Source of the DNA: a virus
Lineage: Duplodnaviria > Caudoviricetes
IMG/VR virus record: IMGVR_UViG_3300033072_000326
Coordinates: 1-64,000 of that record
DNA: 64,000 bases
Direction: 5' to 3' (one strand)
This document shows, piece after piece, positions 1,514 through 17,477 of this stretch. The notes below the pieces were generated by a model, which was not told the DNA's origin, made no database searches, and was given only the letters and a program-made list of their open reading frames with translations. Every line of letters starts with the position of its first letter. Position 1 is the first letter of the stretch. The position numbers and the translations under genes were made by a program.

Positions 1514-1726
1514 TCATTTCTGCCTCTCCTCCTGCACTGCAAACAAGCCTCGGACAAGGTTTGCATTGTAATCCATATGACTCACTGTTTCAACCTCTGC
1601 TTTACAGTTGTTACAACGTAGACACATCAACCCTTCTGCAATCAATTGTACCCCTCGCACAACCAATGGTGCATCATAGTACACTTCCACCATGTAACCT
1701 GCACTACACCGTCTGCATTTCCTCAT
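1514..1726 (-). CDS. YgiT/MqsA-type zinc-finger protein (70 aa), stand-alone antitoxin N-domain-like
   Basis: ATG at 1726 after AAGGAGAGAAG. Sequence MRKCRRCSAGYMVEVYYDAPLVVRGVQLIAEGLMCLRCNNC has CxxC...CxxC spacing and G-x-MV, D-x-P, RG, G residues like the MqsA N-terminal domain. Confidence 0.7.
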   Translation of the reverse strand: MRKCRRCSAGYMVEVYYDAPLVVRGVQLIAEGLMCLRCNNCKAEVETVSHMDYNANLVRGLFAVQEERQK

Positions 1727-9405: not shown

Positions 9406-9888
9406 CTAAAATGGTAAATCTGGGTCTTCATCAAGGTTATATTGTGGTTTTGTCTCCACAACAGTTTTCTTTGTTTTGTGTTTACTCCTGTCCTCAACTT
9501 CTGACAGCATGAATTCAATGTGAGACTTTGGCATGTCCTTATTGAACACAAACTCAAACAAACTGTCGTCAGTTAAATCTAGCACTTCGTAAGAGTTACT
9601 TACAATAAAGCCTGTCATTTTCTTTTGTTTCTTAATCAAGATGCCAGCCTTGCTCAGCTTGGACACAAACTTTTCCACAGCCGACACAGAAACATCGCAA
9701 CGCATTGCAATATCTGCTTGATTATGGAAAAACTCGTTCCCTTGCTCTTTCAAGTGAGCATACTGCGAGTAGCACCAGTTGTAAAGTGCTTTGTCAACAA
9801 GAGATAGTGGTATGGTTTCACCTGTGCTCTTAACAATCACCGCTTGTGCTGCTGCCAGAGCGTAGCTGGCTCTCATGAATGGTTTCAT
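9406..9888 (-). CDS. Winged-HTH DNA-binding protein, replication-initiator-like
   Basis: FFHNQADIAMRCDVSVSAVEKFVSKLSKAGIL...SNSYEV resembles the HTH_36/DnaD/lambda-O-like N-terminal wHTH; acidic tail DEDPDLPF. Confidence 0.65.
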   Translation of the reverse strand: MKPFMRASYALAAAQAVIVKSTGETIPLSLVDKALYNWCYSQYAHLKEQGNEFFHNQADIAMRCDVSVSAVEKFVSKLSKAGILIKKQKKMTGFIVSNSYEVLDLTDDSLFEFVFNKDMPKSHIEFMLSEVEDRSKHKTKKTVVETKPQYNLDEDPDLPF

Positions 9889-11867: not shown

Positions 11868-13334
11868 ATGTCTCAAACAGTGTGGCCGTTGAATGAAAAC
11901 GGTGAGATAGTTGTAACGGCAGGGACAGGTAGTAGCAATGTCACAGGTTATTTGAGTCAAGATGTACTCCCGTCTGCGGGAGACGGAATACCTTTTGCAA
12001 ACGTACTAACCTCCGACAAGTTTGCAAGTCAATGGAATGGTTTTGGTGGGAACGCAAATGGTGTAACAACTGTTTTTATCGGGGATTCCATTACAGCTAA
12101 CGGTTGGTTGTCCAACCTTGCAAGAGACACATCTTCACCTACAGGTATATTCTACTACGATGATGGTAGTGCATCTGGTGTTCGTTTTGCCCGTACAGAA
12201 GATTATGGGTTTTCCGCGTGGTGCCATTTCTTTTCTAATGGCGGTGTAGGGGAGTTTGTAAACTCTGGTATTGGTGGTAACACAACAACACAAATTCTTG
12301 CACGAGTAGATTCCGATGTTTTAGCGTACAACCCATTACTTATTGTTGATGAGTGCGGTACAAATGATGTTATTGCTGGCGCATCCTCAGCCGACATTAT
12401 TGCACGTAAAACAGCATTGATTGAGAAATACAGATCAATAGGTGCAAAAATCGTACTTGTTGATATTGCTCCTCGTTCTGGTTTTGACACGGCAATGAAA
12501 GCTGTCGCTGTTGCTGTCAACAAATGGATGTATTCACTACCTAGAAAAAATCGTGACATAACTGTTTTCTCCATGTCTTCTATCTTGGCAGATCATACAA
12601 GTTCGTCTGGTGCTGTTAGTACGACAAAAACATTTGATAGCACTCACCCAAATAACGTCGGTGCTGTTATGATTGGCAAGCAACTGGCCGCCCATATTGA
12701 TAAGTTTGTTTTTGCACAGTTTAACGAAACCATCTGGACGGCAGACGCCTTTGGTACAGACAGTGCAAATGCTACCATTCGTAACAGTAACCCAGCTATG
12801 TACTATAGTACAGGCGGAACAGCAAACACAGGTGTAAGTGGTAGTGTGGCTAATGGGTTCACATGCTCTCGTCTTGCAGGTACACCAACTGTTGTTGCAA
12901 GTGTGGCGGAACGACCTGACGGAAGAGGCTACACACAGAGGTTGGTGATTACATTCGGTGCTGCTGGAGATGCTGTTGAGTTCGGTATTCCGACAGGATC
13001 TTCGCGTTACCTTGCCGACGGTAGAAAAATATCAACATCATGTAATATCGACCTTGTTACTGGTAGTAATGATGTAGTCAACCGTCTTATTTTGTACACC
13101 AGTGCTGTTGTGTCTGGAGTCACTTATACGGCTACAGCAATGAATCAGCAGGATAGTACAGGCAGGGGCAACCTTCCAACTTCTTTGGGCATAAAAGGTA
13201 ATCTGTTAACACCTAAAATTCAAGTGCCAGCAGGTAGTGCAAGCGGGTTCAGTACACAGCTTCGTATTTATGCTAGCGCAGCTGGGACAGTGACTATTGA
13301 TCTATCTGAATATAAATTGATGCAGCATTTGTAA
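11868..13334 (+). CDS. SGNH/GDSL-hydrolase tailspike-like protein
   Basis: Blocks GDSIT (Ser), NSGIGG, GTND and DSTHP (Asp/His), plus a G/T/S/A-rich C-terminal beta-sandwich-like region. Confidence 0.8.
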   Translation: MSQTVWPLNENGEIVVTAGTGSSNVTGYLSQDVLPSAGDGIPFANVLTSDKFASQWNGFGGNANGVTTVFIGDSITANGWLSNLARDTSSPTGIFYYDDGSASGVRFARTEDYGFSAWCHFFSNGGVGEFVNSGIGGNTTTQILARVDSDVLAYNPLLIVDECGTNDVIAGASSADIIARKTALIEKYRSIGAKIVLVDIAPRSGFDTAMKAVAVAVNKWMYSLPRKNRDITVFSMSSILADHTSSSGAVSTTKTFDSTHPNNVGAVMIGKQLAAHIDKFVFAQFNETIWTADAFGTDSANATIRNSNPAMYYSTGGTANTGVSGSVANGFTCSRLAGTPTVVASVAERPDGRGYTQRLVITFGAAGDAVEFGIPTGSSRYLADGRKISTSCNIDLVTGSNDVVNRLILYTSAVVSGVTYTATAMNQQDSTGRGNLPTSLGIKGNLLTPKIQVPAGSASGFSTQLRIYASAAGTVTIDLSEYKLMQHL

Positions 13335-13338
13335 ACTC

Positions 13339-13366
13339 TTGACAAACTGAAATTCTGTGATACAAT
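13339..13366 (+). promoter_or_regulatory. sigma70-type promoter for the ncRNA/tRNA transcript
   Basis: TTGACA-16 nt-TACAAT with TG extension. Confidence 0.8.
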
Positions 13367-13374
13367 AGATTTAT

Positions 13375-13810
13375 GTAGAGAGGGAGAGACCACAACGCTG
13401 TCTGAAGCCATCGTTGTTTTCGATTTGCCTTCTTCTCTACTCATCACTTTGGATTGGGGGTTCTCGGTTGGGTGGTGGTATTGACCTTTGAGTCCTTTTA
13501 ACACGGTGAATGGCTCTGCGTGGCGACTGTACACGATATTCCAAACACCAACAGCACACATGCTGGCAGGACGCTGCAAAAATGTGAACGTGTGCTCTGA
13601 GATTCGTGAGGTGGAGGTGCTGGACATGATGTACGTTACCCAGAGCTACCTTCCTCTCGGAGACAAACGAAACGTGTTAGGTTGGGACTACCGAGTAGCT
13701 GCGCCAACAGTGAAAACGTAGTTGCACGAGTATGGCTTGAGTCTGAAAGTAACGGAAACAACTTAACATTCTTCTCCAAGCCCATCAGAAATGGTGGGTT
13801 TCAGGAAGAA
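13375..13810 (+). ncRNA. Candidate large structured non-coding RNA
   Basis: No credible ORF with an SD. Many nested helices, e.g. 13463-68/13690-95, 13491-13505/13673-89, 13508-16/13599-605, 13553-59/13590-96 and 13608-23/13640-56. Confidence 0.6.
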
Positions 13811-13817
13811 ACAATAA

Positions 13818-13893
13818 TCCGGTATAGCTCAGTTGGTAGAGCAGCTGATTTGTAATCAGAAGGTCGTGGGTTCAAGTCCTGTTACCGGAACCA
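13818..13893 (+). tRNA. tRNA-Thr(UGU)
   Basis: 76-nt cloverleaf, acceptor TCCGGTA/TACCGGA, anticodon loop TTTGTAA, T-loop TTCAAGT, encoded CCA. Confidence 0.95.
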
Positions 13894-13900
13894 GAACAAT

Positions 13901-13974
13901 AGCGGGTTCACAAGGTGTGACGCCAGTCTCATAAGCTGGTTTGGGAGAGGGTTCAATTCCCTCGCCCGCTACCA
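13901..13974 (+). tRNA. tRNA with CAU anticodon (Met or lysidine-Ile), short D-arm
   Basis: Acceptor AGCGGGT/GCCCGCT, anticodon loop CTCATAA, T-arm GAGGG-TTCAATT-CCCTC, encoded CCA. Confidence 0.85.
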
Positions 13975-13997
13975 AACAAAATACGGAGAACATAACA

Positions 13998-14249
13998 ATG
14001 AAACTGCTTAAAGTCGGTGGAGAATGGTGCTCTAGTTGTAAGGTACAAGAAGCCTTGCTGAAGCATCTGAATGTACTTGATAAATTTGAATACATCGACA
14101 TTGATGTAGATATGGAAACACCACTGAAATACGGTGTACGTTCCATTCCACAATTGCTTGCTGTTGACGAGAACGATAATGTAATTGCTTCGCTAGCTGG
14201 TGGTGCAACAAAAGAACAGATTCTCAATATGGTGGGTAAGTATGGCTGA
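13998..14249 (+). CDS. Thioredoxin
   Basis: WCSSC active site and YGVRSIP motif; ATG 13998 after GGAG. Confidence 0.9.
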   Translation: MKLLKVGGEWCSSCKVQEALLKHLNVLDKFEYIDIDVDMETPLKYGVRSIPQLLAVDENDNVIASLAGGATKEQILNMVGKYG

Positions 14250-14376
14250 TTTGATTAAATATCGTGTTGGCGCTACAATTATTCTGCTCTTCCTTTATGT
14301 GCTGATTTTCATCTTCCTTGTAGGAAGCATTCCTTTCTCTTTGTATTACACACTGTTTGAAGCAAAGCCAAAATAG
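14242..14376 (+). CDS. Small membrane protein (44 aa)
   Basis: Manual translation MADLIKYRVGATIILLFLYVLIFIFLVGSIPFSLYYTLFEAKPK; start overlaps the thioredoxin stop. Confidence 0.55.
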   Translation: MADLIKYRVGATIILLFLYVLIFIFLVGSIPFSLYYTLFEAKPK

Positions 14377-14390
14377 TTTTAGAATAAAAC

Positions 14391-14497
14391 AACTCCTCTC
14401 TCCTCTCAGACGTGTTCTCTCCTCCGTTGCCTCTCCTCAACGTGACACGTCTTTTCGCCCTCTGTCCTTCTCTCCGAGGGCAGGGGGCTTCTTTTCG
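14391..14497 (+). ncRNA. Candidate sRNA with four anti-SD CUCUCC(U) motifs
   Basis: Promoter TTGAAG(14357)-17 nt-TAGAAT(14380). Stems 14408-15/14445-52 and 14425-29/14438-42. 11-bp terminator stem 14457-67/14478-88 followed by a U-rich tail. Confidence 0.7.
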
Positions 14498-14518
14498 TTA
14501 TATTAACATGGAACATTT

Positions 14519-15065
14519 ATGAATAAAAAACAATTACGTCTTGTACGACAAGATGGCCTAACATCTCTACGTATTGTCCTCGTAGACAGTGAAGAGAATG
14601 TTGTACACATTGGTGATGAGCCATTCCAATTTACAGCTCCAGACATTGAAAAGCTAATGACATTGCATTCAGAAGCAGCTTTATGTTTTTCAAAGCCAAT
14701 TCTTACAATGCCAACAAAGCGTGGCACAAAAGGGAAGAGTTTGGAATGGACATGGCCTGAACAAGAAGAGGAAGAATATGAGTAATACATTCTTTGTCTC
14801 TGAAAGCTATGAGCAAGCGTATTATAGATATGTAGATGAAAGCAAGAAACATTTTGGTGCTAGAGGGTATATAGCTAATGCTTCTTCGCTGACATTCTCT
14901 GTGAATGAAGATAGGTATGTTTGTATTGACATGCAAGGGTTTATTAGTAGGCTACGAGCTGGTGAGATTGGTAAGGGTAGTTTGGTGGTGTTGACATTTA
15001 AGCCTGATGATGTTATAATGGCCTCTCTTAAGGAGTATAAGATTAATTTGATTGAGAGAGGATAG
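14519..15065 (+). CDS. Two hypothetical proteins (14519-14785, 14778-15065)
   Basis: Overlapping ORFs with SD-like motifs. Confidence 0.6.
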
Positions 15066-15067
15066 AT

Positions 15068-15820
15068 ATGCCAAAAGCTTTAGACATCACTGGTGAGAAG
15101 TACGGTCGCCTTACGGCAATAGAGCTGAGTCATAGAAAGAACTACATGACTTATTGGAAGTTCATATGCGACTGCGGTAAGGAATGTGTTGTGGCACTTG
15201 GTAAGGCACGAAGTGGTCATACACGCTCTTGTGGTTGCTTGATGCGCGAAACGACTATTAAGCGTAGTACAAAACACAACATGGCTGGTACACCTGAGTA
15301 TGAGGCTTGGATTGACGCCAAGAAGCGTGTAGGCAATAAAAGTAAACGCTATAAGTATGCAGAGCATGGCATCGACATGCAAGAAAGCTGGAAGAAAGAC
15401 TTCATGGCTTTCTATGAATATGTCGGGCCGAAGCCAAGTCCAAAGCATTCTCTAGGACGTATAGACAACTTCAAAGGTTATGAAGAGGGCAACGTCCGTT
15501 GGGAAACCGATGAACAACAAGCTCGCAATCACAGTAAGCAAGTGAACAACAAATCTGGTGTTGTAGGCGTTCACTTCTACGTACCAAAAGGTAATAAAGT
15601 TGGTGTATGGGTGGCTAAGGCTGTGGTTGGTGGTAAAGCGTGTGTAAAGCGGTTCTCTGTCAAACAACTAGGGGATGAGCTTGCGTTTTTCTTGGCCTGT
15701 GAACAACGAGATCAATGGATGTTAATTAACGAAATGTGCTTCGGAGTACGGTTTGCAGAAACACATGGATTGAGTAAAGAAGAATATGACAAAACAAAAG
15801 ATGGTGTTTGCACCATGTAG
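15068..15820 (+). CDS. Free-standing HNH homing endonuclease with AP2-like C-terminus
   Basis: ITGEKYGRLTAI, CDCG, SCGC, SLGRIDNFKGYEEGNVRWET, SGVVGV; overlaps the terL start. Confidence 0.85.
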   Translation: MPKALDITGEKYGRLTAIELSHRKNYMTYWKFICDCGKECVVALGKARSGHTRSCGCLMRETTIKRSTKHNMAGTPEYEAWIDAKKRVGNKSKRYKYAEHGIDMQESWKKDFMAFYEYVGPKPSPKHSLGRIDNFKGYEEGNVRWETDEQQARNHSKQVNNKSGVVGVHFYVPKGNKVGVWVAKAVVGGKACVKRFSVKQLGDELAFFLACEQRDQWMLINEMCFGVRFAETHGLSKEEYDKTKDGVCTM

Positions 15821-15981
15821 TGAAAAACAAAAACTAATCCTACAAGAGGCAGGCGTAAACTGCCTTTTGATAGGTGGCGGGGCCGGCAGCGGGAAGACCC
15901 GCATGTGTCTTACCAAATTTCTATCTGAAATCAACAATCCACACGCGAAAATCGTTATCTTTCGGAGAACGATTCCTGAGT
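15786..15981 (+). CDS. terL: Terminase large subunit, exon 1
   Basis: Walker A GGAGSGKT, IFRRTIPE; splices in frame to exon 2 as PE-L-KIAGGIVDES. Confidence 0.9.
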
Positions 15982-16236
15982 TAAACGGCTCCTTCTAGTA
16001 GTGATGCTAGTCGATAACTTCTCTAAGTCGGTGAACCTCTCCTAGTGAGACAATACCGAGCAAGGAATATACAATGTATTCCGTGTGTGACGGTCAGCCG
16101 AAAGGCGTAGTTGCAAGCGCAGCGAAACGAGAAGCCCTTGCATTCGTGCAAGGTGAAGATATGACCTGAACTCTATGGTGACATAGAGCAGCTTAATAAG
16201 CGGGAAGAGGCGTAGCGCCCTCTTCTGAACATATTG
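15982..16236 (+). mobile_element. ORF-less group I intron in terL (255 nt)
   Basis: Exon ends in U, intron ends in G. P1 GAGU/GCUC; P AAGTCGGTGAA, Q AATACCGAGC; P7 ACGGTCA/TGACCT; S AAGATATGACC. Confidence 0.9.
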
Positions 16237-17477
16237 TGAAAATCGCCGGTGGTATTGTCGATGAATCGCATAAAATCTACCCTCATTTTGGTGGCAGGTA
16301 TGGTAAACAGGAGATGAAGTGGACGTTCCCTAGCGGAGCGTTCATTCAATTCCGTGGCTTTCCAGATGACTATCAAACACTGCAATCCATGCAGGCAACG
16401 CACGTGCTTATAGATGAGGCTGCCACGAATTGGCAGGAGCATGAAGTGTTGTTCCTTTTCTCTCGTATGCGTTCTGGTGAATACAAGGGTAAGCAAATGC
16501 TTATCATGTCTTGTAACCCTGAGTATAGTTCATTTCTACGGCATTGGGTAGAGTTTTCTCTAGATCAAGACGGTGTTCCTCACAAAGGTACAGAACATAA
16601 AGTTCGTTACTTCGTCAACCTTAGCGGTAAGATGTTTTGGGCTGATAGCGAAGAAGAGCTTTATGAAATGTGTGGTAAAGGGTTGGAACGTGGTAAGGAT
16701 TTTGTTCCTAAATCTTTCAAGTTCATTCCTGCAACAATTGAAGATAACCCGATTCTAATTAAGAACAACCCAGAATACTATGCATCCCTTCTTGCCCAGC
16801 CACGCGTAAACCAACTTCGATATTTAAAAGGCAGCTGGATAGCCCGTGAAGATAGTGGTAGTTTCTTCAAACGAAGCATGATTAACTTTGTAGATTTGCC
16901 ACCAACTGACCCAGACTTGAAGATTGTACGTGCATGGGATTTGGCTTACACTGTTCCAACAGAGACAAACAAAGACCCAGATTATTCTTGTGGGGTAAAA
17001 CTTGCTAGAGACAGACACGGACGTTACTATGTAATGGACGTTGTGTGGGAACGTATGCTGCATGGGGATATTATCAACCTCATTGCAAAGATTGCCTACG
17101 AGGATGGTATTGATGATTGTAAGGTAGTTTTGCCGCGAGATGGAGGCGCTGGGGCCTTCGTACACGGGCATATGAAGCGTGAACTTGGTGAGATGGGTAT
17201 CTACACTTACTCAGATGTTATGTCTGGGCATAGAAGTAAAGTGCAACGGTTCCTGCCTTTCTGCGCAGTAGTAGACAGTGGTGTTGTCAATTTGGTTAAA
17301 GGTAGCTGGAATGAACGATTCCTCACTGAATTGGAGTATTTCACAGGTGAACGTGGACGCCACGACGATGCCGTGGACGGGGTCGGTAGTGCCTTTAAGT
17401 TTCTAGCTAATGAACGATCTCTCCCACAATTCACCTTCGCAGATATGTCCCGTTCTTCTGGACTCCCCTCCCTGTAA
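16237..17477 (+). CDS. terL: Terminase large subunit, exon 2 (spliced protein 478 aa)
   Basis: Walker B VLIDEA, MSCNP, RAWDLA, HDDAVDG nuclease motifs. Confidence 0.92.

Follow-up and report, generated by a model that had tools for sequence, protein, structure and literature searches.

A conserved CU-rich structured RNA predicted at the 3′ end of a phage tRNA-thioredoxin operon, with a possible anti-Shine-Dalgarno role

Little is known about the regulatory RNAs of virulent phages. Among bacterial small RNAs (sRNAs), those processed from 3′ untranslated regions (UTRs) share the terminator of their parent mRNA (CpxQ and SroC of enterobacteria are examples), and the Cuckoo/alpha-r14 sRNAs (CcsR1-4 and NfeR1) carry CCUCCUCCC loops. 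LhrC of Listeria monocytogenes has three redundant CU motifs, located in loop A, in a single-stranded segment, and in the terminator loop, each of which binds to a Shine-Dalgarno (SD) region (PMC4132741). A C/U-rich anti-SD motif is also present in the 3′ UTR of the icaR mRNA of Staphylococcus aureus (PMC3868564). The Hfq-binding module of sRNAs consists of a U-rich stretch in front of the terminator hairpin and at least seven U residues after it (PMC5558911). In phage PAK_P3, two abundant RNAs of ∼100 nucleotides (nt) arise from the tRNA region late in infection (PMC4933390). Here, we analyze a CU-rich element of a metagenomic phage (positions 14391 to 14497, plus strand) that had been predicted from its sequence to be a self-contained sRNA gene displaying four anti-SD loops.

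The window analyzed is the first 64 kb of the 88-kb IMG/VR viral contig IMGVR_UViG_3300033072_000326. The phage is myovirus-like; its portal protein shares 42% identity with the portal of Pseudomonas Pakpunavirus phages, and a closer isolate is not known; near and distant searches of GenBank phages gave matches that were tRNAs or noise only. Genes from ∼10.7 kb to 40 kb are oriented rightward and comprise tRNAs and the packaging, head, and tail genes, and the remaining genes are oriented leftward. Upstream of the element lies a strong σ70-type promoter (13339 to 13366, plus strand; TTGACA, a 16-nt spacer, and a TG-extended TACAAT, matching 11 of 12 consensus positions), which is separated from the first tRNA gene by a stretch of ∼440 nt that is free of open reading frames (ORFs). 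The genes that follow, all on the plus strand, encode tRNA-Thr(UGU) and tRNA-Met(CAU) (13818 to 13974; detected by ARAGORN and as Rfam tRNA), a thioredoxin-like protein of 83 amino acids (aa) (13998 to 14249; Pfam PF00085, E value of 3e-7; phrog_22), and a hydrophobic (membrane) peptide of 44 aa, whose listed ORF (14242 to 14376) is the last gene before the element. Downstream, the next ORF on the plus strand is an 88-aa gene without a clear SD sequence (14519 to 14785; also seen at the homologous loci), which starts 21 nt past the U tract of the element and is followed by a 95-aa gene, a consensus promoter at 14991, an HNH endonuclease gene, and the large terminase gene. Since no promoter fits between 14497 and 14519, the 88-aa gene would be reached by terminator read-through only.

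The element begins with a 17-nt CU-rich segment that is unpaired in the minimum-energy fold and holds the first copy of the motif CUCUCC (14391 to 14407, plus strand, as are all parts that follow). Hairpin 1 (14408 to 14452) consists of an outer stem of 8 bp (14408-15/14445-52) and an inner hairpin of 5 bp (14425-29/14438-42); it carries the second motif copy in a 9-nt all-pyrimidine bulge (14416-24) and the third in the 8-nt all-pyrimidine inner loop (14430-37). A U-rich linker of 4 nt (14453 to 14456), which differs in length by 1 nt in one relative (L097), leads to a GC-rich terminator hairpin of 11 to 13 bp with G·U pairs (14457 to 14488), whose loop contains the fourth motif copy (14470-75), and a U-rich tract, the expected 3′ end of the RNA, closes the element (14489 to 14497; 6 of 8 positions are U, interrupted by a C). 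RNAfold lengthens the 11-bp terminator stem (14457-67/14478-88) to 13 bp including 8 G-C pairs and leaves exactly CUCUCC as the loop. With the U-rich tract behind it, this hairpin has the features of an intrinsic terminator, and it ranks first among those found between positions 9500 and 20500. The minimum free energy of 14391-14497 on the plus strand is −38.1 kcal/mol (z score of −6.9); one structure dominates, and the centroid is identical to the minimum-energy structure. Both hairpins with their stems, bulge, and loops, the terminator, and the G·U pairs are thus as originally predicted.

The DNA motif CTCTCC occurs at 14398, 14417, 14431, and 14470, i.e., four times within 80 nt, and all four copies are unpaired in the minimum-energy fold, which again agrees with the original prediction. 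When the window was shuffled 200 times with its dinucleotides preserved, no cluster of four per 100 nt arose; at most three copies were reached, in a single instance. The ∼50 unpaired positions are all C or U apart from two A residues at the 5′ end, and because every unpaired base from 14393 to 14496 is a pyrimidine, the exposed segments cannot pair with each other. The clustering of the motif and the structure thus exceed chance expectation. Neither a second copy of the element nor a similar CU cluster was found elsewhere in the 88-kb genome, where the remaining pyrimidine-rich peaks lie on the antisense strand of coding regions, and an Rfam scan of positions 12000 to 17000 with E values of up to 10 returned, apart from the tRNAs, noise and no relevant family.

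The choice of the plus strand, also part of the original prediction, rests on the G·U pairs, the U tract, and the folding energy, which is only −30.3 kcal/mol (z score of −2.7) for the minus strand of the element. A transcript of that strand would show GGAGAG in the same loops and might act as a sponge for CsrA/RsmA. We consider this extremely unlikely: the G·U pairs become C-A mismatches on the minus strand, which weakens the fold, and in each of five homologs that were folded the plus strand was better by 7 to 11 kcal/mol. U tracts occur on the plus strand only, so that no hairpin of the minus strand is followed by one, and the neighboring genes are all on the plus strand. These differences of 7 to 11 kcal/mol and the missing terminator on the minus strand disfavor both the minus-strand reading and the alternative, raised with the original prediction, of a sponge for CsrB/RsmZ-type RNAs.

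Homologous loci were collected by searches with the neighboring proteins and come from independent metagenomic assemblies (L002/L096, L097/L098, L099, L254/L255, L256, L260, L262, L266, L263, and L264); homologous copies of the element were present in nine other independent metagenomic phage contigs. Samples from which the contigs derive include SRR20822967, SRR21473947, ERR10509559, SRR34340265, SRR31200903, ERR14149700, and the IMG samples 3300033072 and 3300005076. Pattern scans for the CU motifs in viral, metagenome, and genome collections gave low-complexity noise only, and BLAST searches of all fetched loci uncovered no further true copy. The 44-aa ORF upstream is conserved in L002, L097, L254, L260, L262, and L266, and a homolog of the 88-aa gene always follows the element, at a distance of 12 to 60 nt. 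A core of ∼98 nt that spans the first CU motif through the U tract shows 94 to 100% identity to the window in L002, L097, L254, L099, L260, and L256, whereas the thioredoxin, peptide, and 88-aa genes on either side show 66 to 90% in L002, L099, L256, and L260; the values for L262 are 88% for the core and 59 to 69% for the flanks. A coding reading of this conservation (a 49-aa ORF at 14357-14506) was ruled out by 1-nt indels between homologs.

More diverged copies show which parts were changed and how. In L256, L262, and L266, a U-A pair of the inner hairpin is replaced by C-G. In L263, where the background identity is 65%, a simple hairpin of 6 to 7 bp takes the place of the bulged hairpin, the changes in its stem are compensatory, and the terminator stem is rebuilt; its loop retains the exact 8-nt CU motif of the window, and its 5′ strand is a CU run of 12 nt. 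The most distant locus, L264 (88-aa protein 38% identical), has only a CU-rich strand with CCUCC followed by a terminator. The 5′ CU segment varies in detail and stays CU-rich in the homologs, L263 and L264 included. The motif in the terminator loop has changed in L266 and is missing from L263, which makes it the least constrained of the four copies. A covariance model that was built without L263 detects that locus with 39 bits (E value of 5e-10). The same model detects neither L264 nor a CU-rich hairpin of Pakpunavirus, and we therefore do not claim homology of the element with either.

The original prediction had named covariation across related phages as a check, and the relatives bear the fold out. 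In an alignment of nine sequences, 98.7% of the cells are paired and 7 pairs are changed on both sides versus 1.2 expected, a count to be read with the facts that the alignment was fitted to the model and that L256, L262, and L263 carry most of the compensatory changes. Seven double-changed pairs were reached by none of 500 shuffles, and slid controls gave at most one. Compensatory changes are located in the outer and inner stems of hairpin 1, and four pairs of the terminator show double changes. Since the element is conserved above its flanks, its stems change in a compensatory manner, and the G·U pairs and U tract exist on the plus strand only, these comparative data indicate that it is a selected, plus-strand, noncoding structured RNA.

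Such a block could also be a purely cis-acting one, that is, an insulating terminator with a hairpin that protects against exonucleases and lets a low level of read-through into the 88-aa and 95-aa genes, whose identity is kept by its use as a recombination linker between modules and whose CU richness has no function in trans. The mosaic structure of the flanks speaks for this explanation. Directly upstream of the block, L099 and L260 carry an inserted DUF5856 gene; in L002 and L260, a different allele starts right after the U tract; and each of two upstream flank types is found with each of two downstream types, with sharp breaks exactly at the edges of the block. Because all four combinations exist, the block is also a recombination joint, and the near-identity of its stems and loops among close relatives could in part reflect recombination. 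The top-ranked terminator of the region, a downstream gene that lacks its own promoter and begins 21 nt past the U tract, and the dispensability of the terminator-loop motif in L263 and L266 would all be expected of such a cis element. Hairpin 1, however, is superfluous for a plain terminator, and the explanation accounts neither for the ∼50 all-pyrimidine unpaired positions nor for the persistence of the CU strand and the exact 8-nt loop in L263 and of the CCUCC strand in L264 despite identities of 38 to 65%. We therefore regard this explanation, the main rival to the one we prefer, as somewhat unlikely.

The tight linkage to the 88-aa gene would also fit a regulated attenuator or leader of the packaging genes, with a protein or RNA antiterminator that permits conditional read-through and so switches on the 88-aa and 95-aa genes. 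A homolog of the 88-aa gene always lies 12 to 60 nt downstream without a promoter of its own, and the location just before the terminase module is reminiscent of the terminated leaders of late operons. Against this stand the strong promoter at 14991, which already serves the HNH and terminase genes, the lack of a match to any known antitermination RNA family in Rfam, and the lack of an antiterminator fold: the minimum-energy structure equals the centroid, and the upstream segments are G-poor and thus cannot compete for the 5′ arm of the terminator. An attenuator is in our view improbable.

Whether the element is transcribed from a promoter of its own bears on the claim of a self-contained gene. 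The hexamers of the originally predicted promoter, TTGAAG (14357-62) and TAGAAT (14380-85), are present on the plus strand with the 17-nt spacing, but the candidate (14357 to 14385) matches the consensus at 9 of 12 positions without a TG extension, compared with 11 to 12 of 12 with TG for the clear promoters of this phage, and it is conserved neither in sequence nor in position. TAGAAT is found in L002 and L097 as well, which would be in line with a stand-alone sRNA gene that is transcribed from this σ70 promoter with a start near 14391. In L002, however, the spacing of the hexamers collapses, and in L254 the invariant T of the −10 hexamer is lost. In five of the nine homologs, the best promoter match is ≤7 of 12 and its position is not fixed; L099, L260, and L262 have no σ70-like site above 7 of 12 at a comparable place, and the candidates in L263 and L264 are located at other positions. 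In relatives, the A-rich sequence around the candidate matches the last part of the upstream ORF, and 0 to 25 nt separate the end of the upstream coding sequence from the CU strand in L099, L260, L262, L263, and L264. A stand-alone gene is, with these data, an unlikely explanation, and the description of the element as self-contained is not supported, the promoter being weak and missing from most homologs. TAGAAT together with the A-rich stretch was also considered as a phage-specific late promoter motif and was rejected, with 44 matches in the window versus 43 expected.

The operon promoter at 13339 and the 5′ leader behind it are, in contrast, conserved in L096, L097, L254, L260, and L263, i.e., wherever sequence is available. 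Because the promoter at 14357 is not conserved, the upstream ORF abuts the element, and the promoter at 13339 is conserved, the conserved unit is an operon 3′ end. The best explanation of the locus includes that the RNA module is the 3′ end of the operon that starts at 13339 and runs through tRNA-Thr, tRNA-Met, and the thioredoxin and 44-aa genes. Pairing of the element with a GA-rich part of the 5′ leader (13377-89) was tried as a further possibility and rejected, since the leader varies and the element does not, with no covariation between them.

For complementarity to ribosome-binding sites, 91 plausible genes were called, and the sites of 53 leftward and 38 rightward genes were compared. 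The original prediction held that the exact complement of the motif, AGGAGAG, is used by many leftward genes. This was overstated, as GGAGAG occurs in 8 of 53 leftward sites (1 of 38 rightward); the shorter AGGAGA occurs in 28 of 53 leftward sites (5 of 38 rightward). Best duplex energies with the four motifs average −11.0 kcal/mol for leftward versus −7.9 kcal/mol for rightward genes (Mann-Whitney P value of 4e-5). The difference fits a preferential effect on messages with strong SD sequences, but it may only reflect the stronger SD sequences of the leftward genes. The predicted complementarity of the motifs to these stronger sites is borne out, and complementarity to SD sequences is generic for any CU-rich RNA. 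Loop 1 has a perfect 10-nt complement in the ribosome-binding site of the ORF at 1368-1517, for which no relatives were found, and this match is possibly due to chance.

A 3′ UTR with anti-SD-like motifs could also act on its own message, as the precedent of icaR suggests (PMC3868564), and here the CU motifs would pair with the SD sequence of the thioredoxin gene or the 44-aa ORF on the same mRNA. Duplex energies with the initiation regions of the operon are, however, −10 to −16 kcal/mol and lie inside the range of other phage genes, and these regions do not covary with the element in relatives. Regulation in cis of this type is very unlikely.

The constrained parts of the element are its exposed CU motifs, those of the 5′ strand and of hairpin 1 being conserved in the relatives. 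This constraint points to base pairing or protein binding rather than to mere termination. As a binding platform or decoy, the pyrimidine tracts would titrate or recruit S1, Rho (through YC dinucleotides), cold-shock proteins, or Hfq. Such a role is suggested by the four regularly exposed pyrimidine tracts and by the invariance of the stems as well as the loops in close relatives, which goes beyond the needs of pairing seeds. Rho prefers a long unstructured stretch of RNA, however, and the hairpins leave tracts of 6 to 15 nt; a match to a known protein-binding RNA family is also missing in Rfam. In its U-rich linker and tail, the element partly resembles the Hfq-binding module (PMC5558911). 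Taken together, we rate a protein platform or decoy as quite unlikely.

Base pairing in trans is the role that we favor. Transcription of the plus strand would end at the strong intrinsic terminator (14457-14497), and in the predicted fold the CU-rich single strand and the bulged hairpin upstream of it hold the CUCUCC-type motifs unpaired. We propose that the module accumulates as a stable small RNA, which would be released for the most part when the operon transcript is processed in the A/U-rich sequence immediately before the element, with a possible contribution from a weak internal promoter in some genomes. The redundant CU motifs could pair with purine-rich SD sequences (GGAGAG and AGGAGA) and block the binding of the 30S subunit. 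Because leftward SD sequences are stronger and match better than those of the structural genes, messages with strong SD sequences, namely, those of the host and of the leftward, presumably early, phage genes, would be damped preferentially, and the terminator might in addition limit read-through into the 88-aa and 95-aa genes. We assign a probability of roughly 0.45 to the combined explanation that the element is a ∼100-nt RNA from the 3′ end of the operon and plausibly acts in trans as an anti-SD RNA. A bolder version, which we put forward as a speculation and consider doubtful, is that a very stable, multivalent anti-SD RNA from the 3′ end of the highly expressed tRNA operon of a lytic phage accumulates, occludes the strong GGAGAG/AGGAGA-type sites of host and leftward (early) messages, and spares the structural genes with their weak SD sequences, and would thus be an RNA-only counterpart of the early-to-late switch by RegA/RegB of T4.

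If the trans role is true, ∼100 nt of RNA on a strongly transcribed operon could be enough for a phage to keep early and late translation apart or to stop translation of the host. The family is small and clearly under selection, and with its simple, mutable design of two hairpins and four CU motifs it is well suited as a test case for CU-loop RNAs. If it is a terminator or linker only, the block nonetheless shows precisely where recombination joins the tRNA/accessory module to the packaging module in this phage group.

Several of the known systems share single features with the element. GGA motifs like those of the CsrB/RsmZ sponges are present only on its minus strand, which has no U tract and a weaker fold. 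Like the Cuckoo/alpha-r14 sRNAs, the element repeats one pyrimidine anti-SD-like motif in the loops of more than one hairpin, but its motif and fold are different, and no family of this type was matched in Rfam at E values of up to 10. PAK_P3 belongs to a related lineage and has the same synteny, with the tRNA cluster just before the terminase gene; its published RNAs sRNA1 and sRNA2, unlike the element, are not CU-rich and show no homology to it, and sRNA2 looks tRNA-like (PMC4933390). With icaR, the element has in common the placement of a C/U-rich anti-SD-like motif in a 3′ UTR, and it differs in that the match to the SD sequences of its own operon is no better than that to other genes and is not accompanied by covariation. 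The Hfq-binding module is matched only in part: the U-rich linker is present (14453-56), and the U-rich tail (14489-97) is broken by a C, unlike the run of at least seven U residues typical of Hfq-dependent sRNAs (PMC5558911).

The closest architecture is that of the LhrC family of L. monocytogenes and the UCCC/CU-loop sRNAs of Firmicutes (RsaE/RoxS, the RNAIII hairpins, and FsrA). Like LhrC, the element is ∼100 nt long and G-poor, folds into two hairpins with the terminator as the second, and contains an SD-complementary motif (PMC4132741); its redundant CU motifs are accessible in a hairpin loop, in single-stranded RNA, and in the loop of the terminator. Unlike these sRNAs, it has no sequence or Rfam similarity to them, and its motif is CUCUCC/CCUCC, with no UCCC in the unpaired regions. 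It further differs from LhrC in being phage borne, in having four motif copies including one in a bulge, and in its location at the 3′ end of a tRNA-thioredoxin operon without a conserved promoter of its own. By these differences, the element is not a member of the LhrC or UCCC families. Its relation to the 3′-UTR-derived sRNAs is one of position: it follows directly after a stop codon, ends at the terminator of the operon, is more conserved than the coding sequence upstream, and is preceded by an A/U-rich stretch that could be an RNase E site. Its interrupted U tail sets it apart from sRNAs of the CpxQ and SroC type, and by its position and its pattern of conservation the element appears to fit the class of 3′-UTR-derived sRNAs.

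The layout of the HNH endonuclease and terminase genes was compared across window positions 15068-17477. The HNH endonuclease gene of the window (15068-15820) is an insertion. In the homologous metagenomic loci L254 and L255, a 70-aa ORF that looks like terminase exon 1 comes immediately after the 95-aa gene, and a gap of ∼240 nt separates this ORF from the 413-aa terminase part (L254, 3001-4977). Two further relatives carry a different gene at the place of the HNH endonuclease gene, encoding a DUF723 protein of 391 to 392 aa (L260, 3288-4463; L263, 2829-4007). The terminase part of the window (16236-17477) matches phrog_979 only at positions 211-615, as would be consistent with a split (intron-containing) gene.

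In two relatives, L099 (30-464) and L260 (2164-2604), a DUF5856 gene (144 to 146 aa) separates the 44-aa peptide ORF from the CU-rich element. It is inserted precisely at this junction, and its stop codon adjoins the element. For the 88-aa protein encoded downstream of the element (window 14519-14785), an exhaustive phmmer search matched two giant proteins of 3,295 and 1,849 aa, each of which contains 14 to 15 repeats resembling the N-terminal 34 residues (10-43) of the 88-aa protein.

At the 5′ end of the operon, the leader (13367-13817) provides ∼440 nt without an ORF ahead of the tRNAs and has a conserved GA-rich 5′ end at 13377-89. L097 and L254 share the promoter and the leader start with the window, but their thioredoxin gene is not preceded by tRNAs. 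Several TG-extended sigma70 promoters with a perfect or near-perfect match to the consensus were found within the rightward structural module and the leftward module alike (11323-50, 13339-66, 14991-15019, and 17534-62, and 10269-41 on the minus strand); their presence in the rightward structural module would be unusual if the structural genes are expressed late.

The hairpin-1 loop of the CU-rich element, together with its closing bases, has a perfect 10-nt complement in the ribosome-binding site (1518-1535, minus strand) of a 49-aa ORF at 1368-1517, with a predicted duplex energy of −22.5 kcal/mol. Because both sequences share a composition bias, this match may be due to chance.

Pseudomonas phage PA10 (NC_041903, 5262-5333) also has a CU-rich stretch, which contains two UUUCCUCCUC-type runs; one of these runs forms part of a nested hairpin's loop. 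This Pakpunavirus stretch is located just 5′ of the final tRNA (Thr-UGU) and of the terminase gene, is ≥93% identical across 123 GenBank records, and is annotated in some of them as a hypothetical protein. Since the covariance model of the window's CU-rich element did not detect it, the Pakpunavirus stretch is at best analogous to that element.
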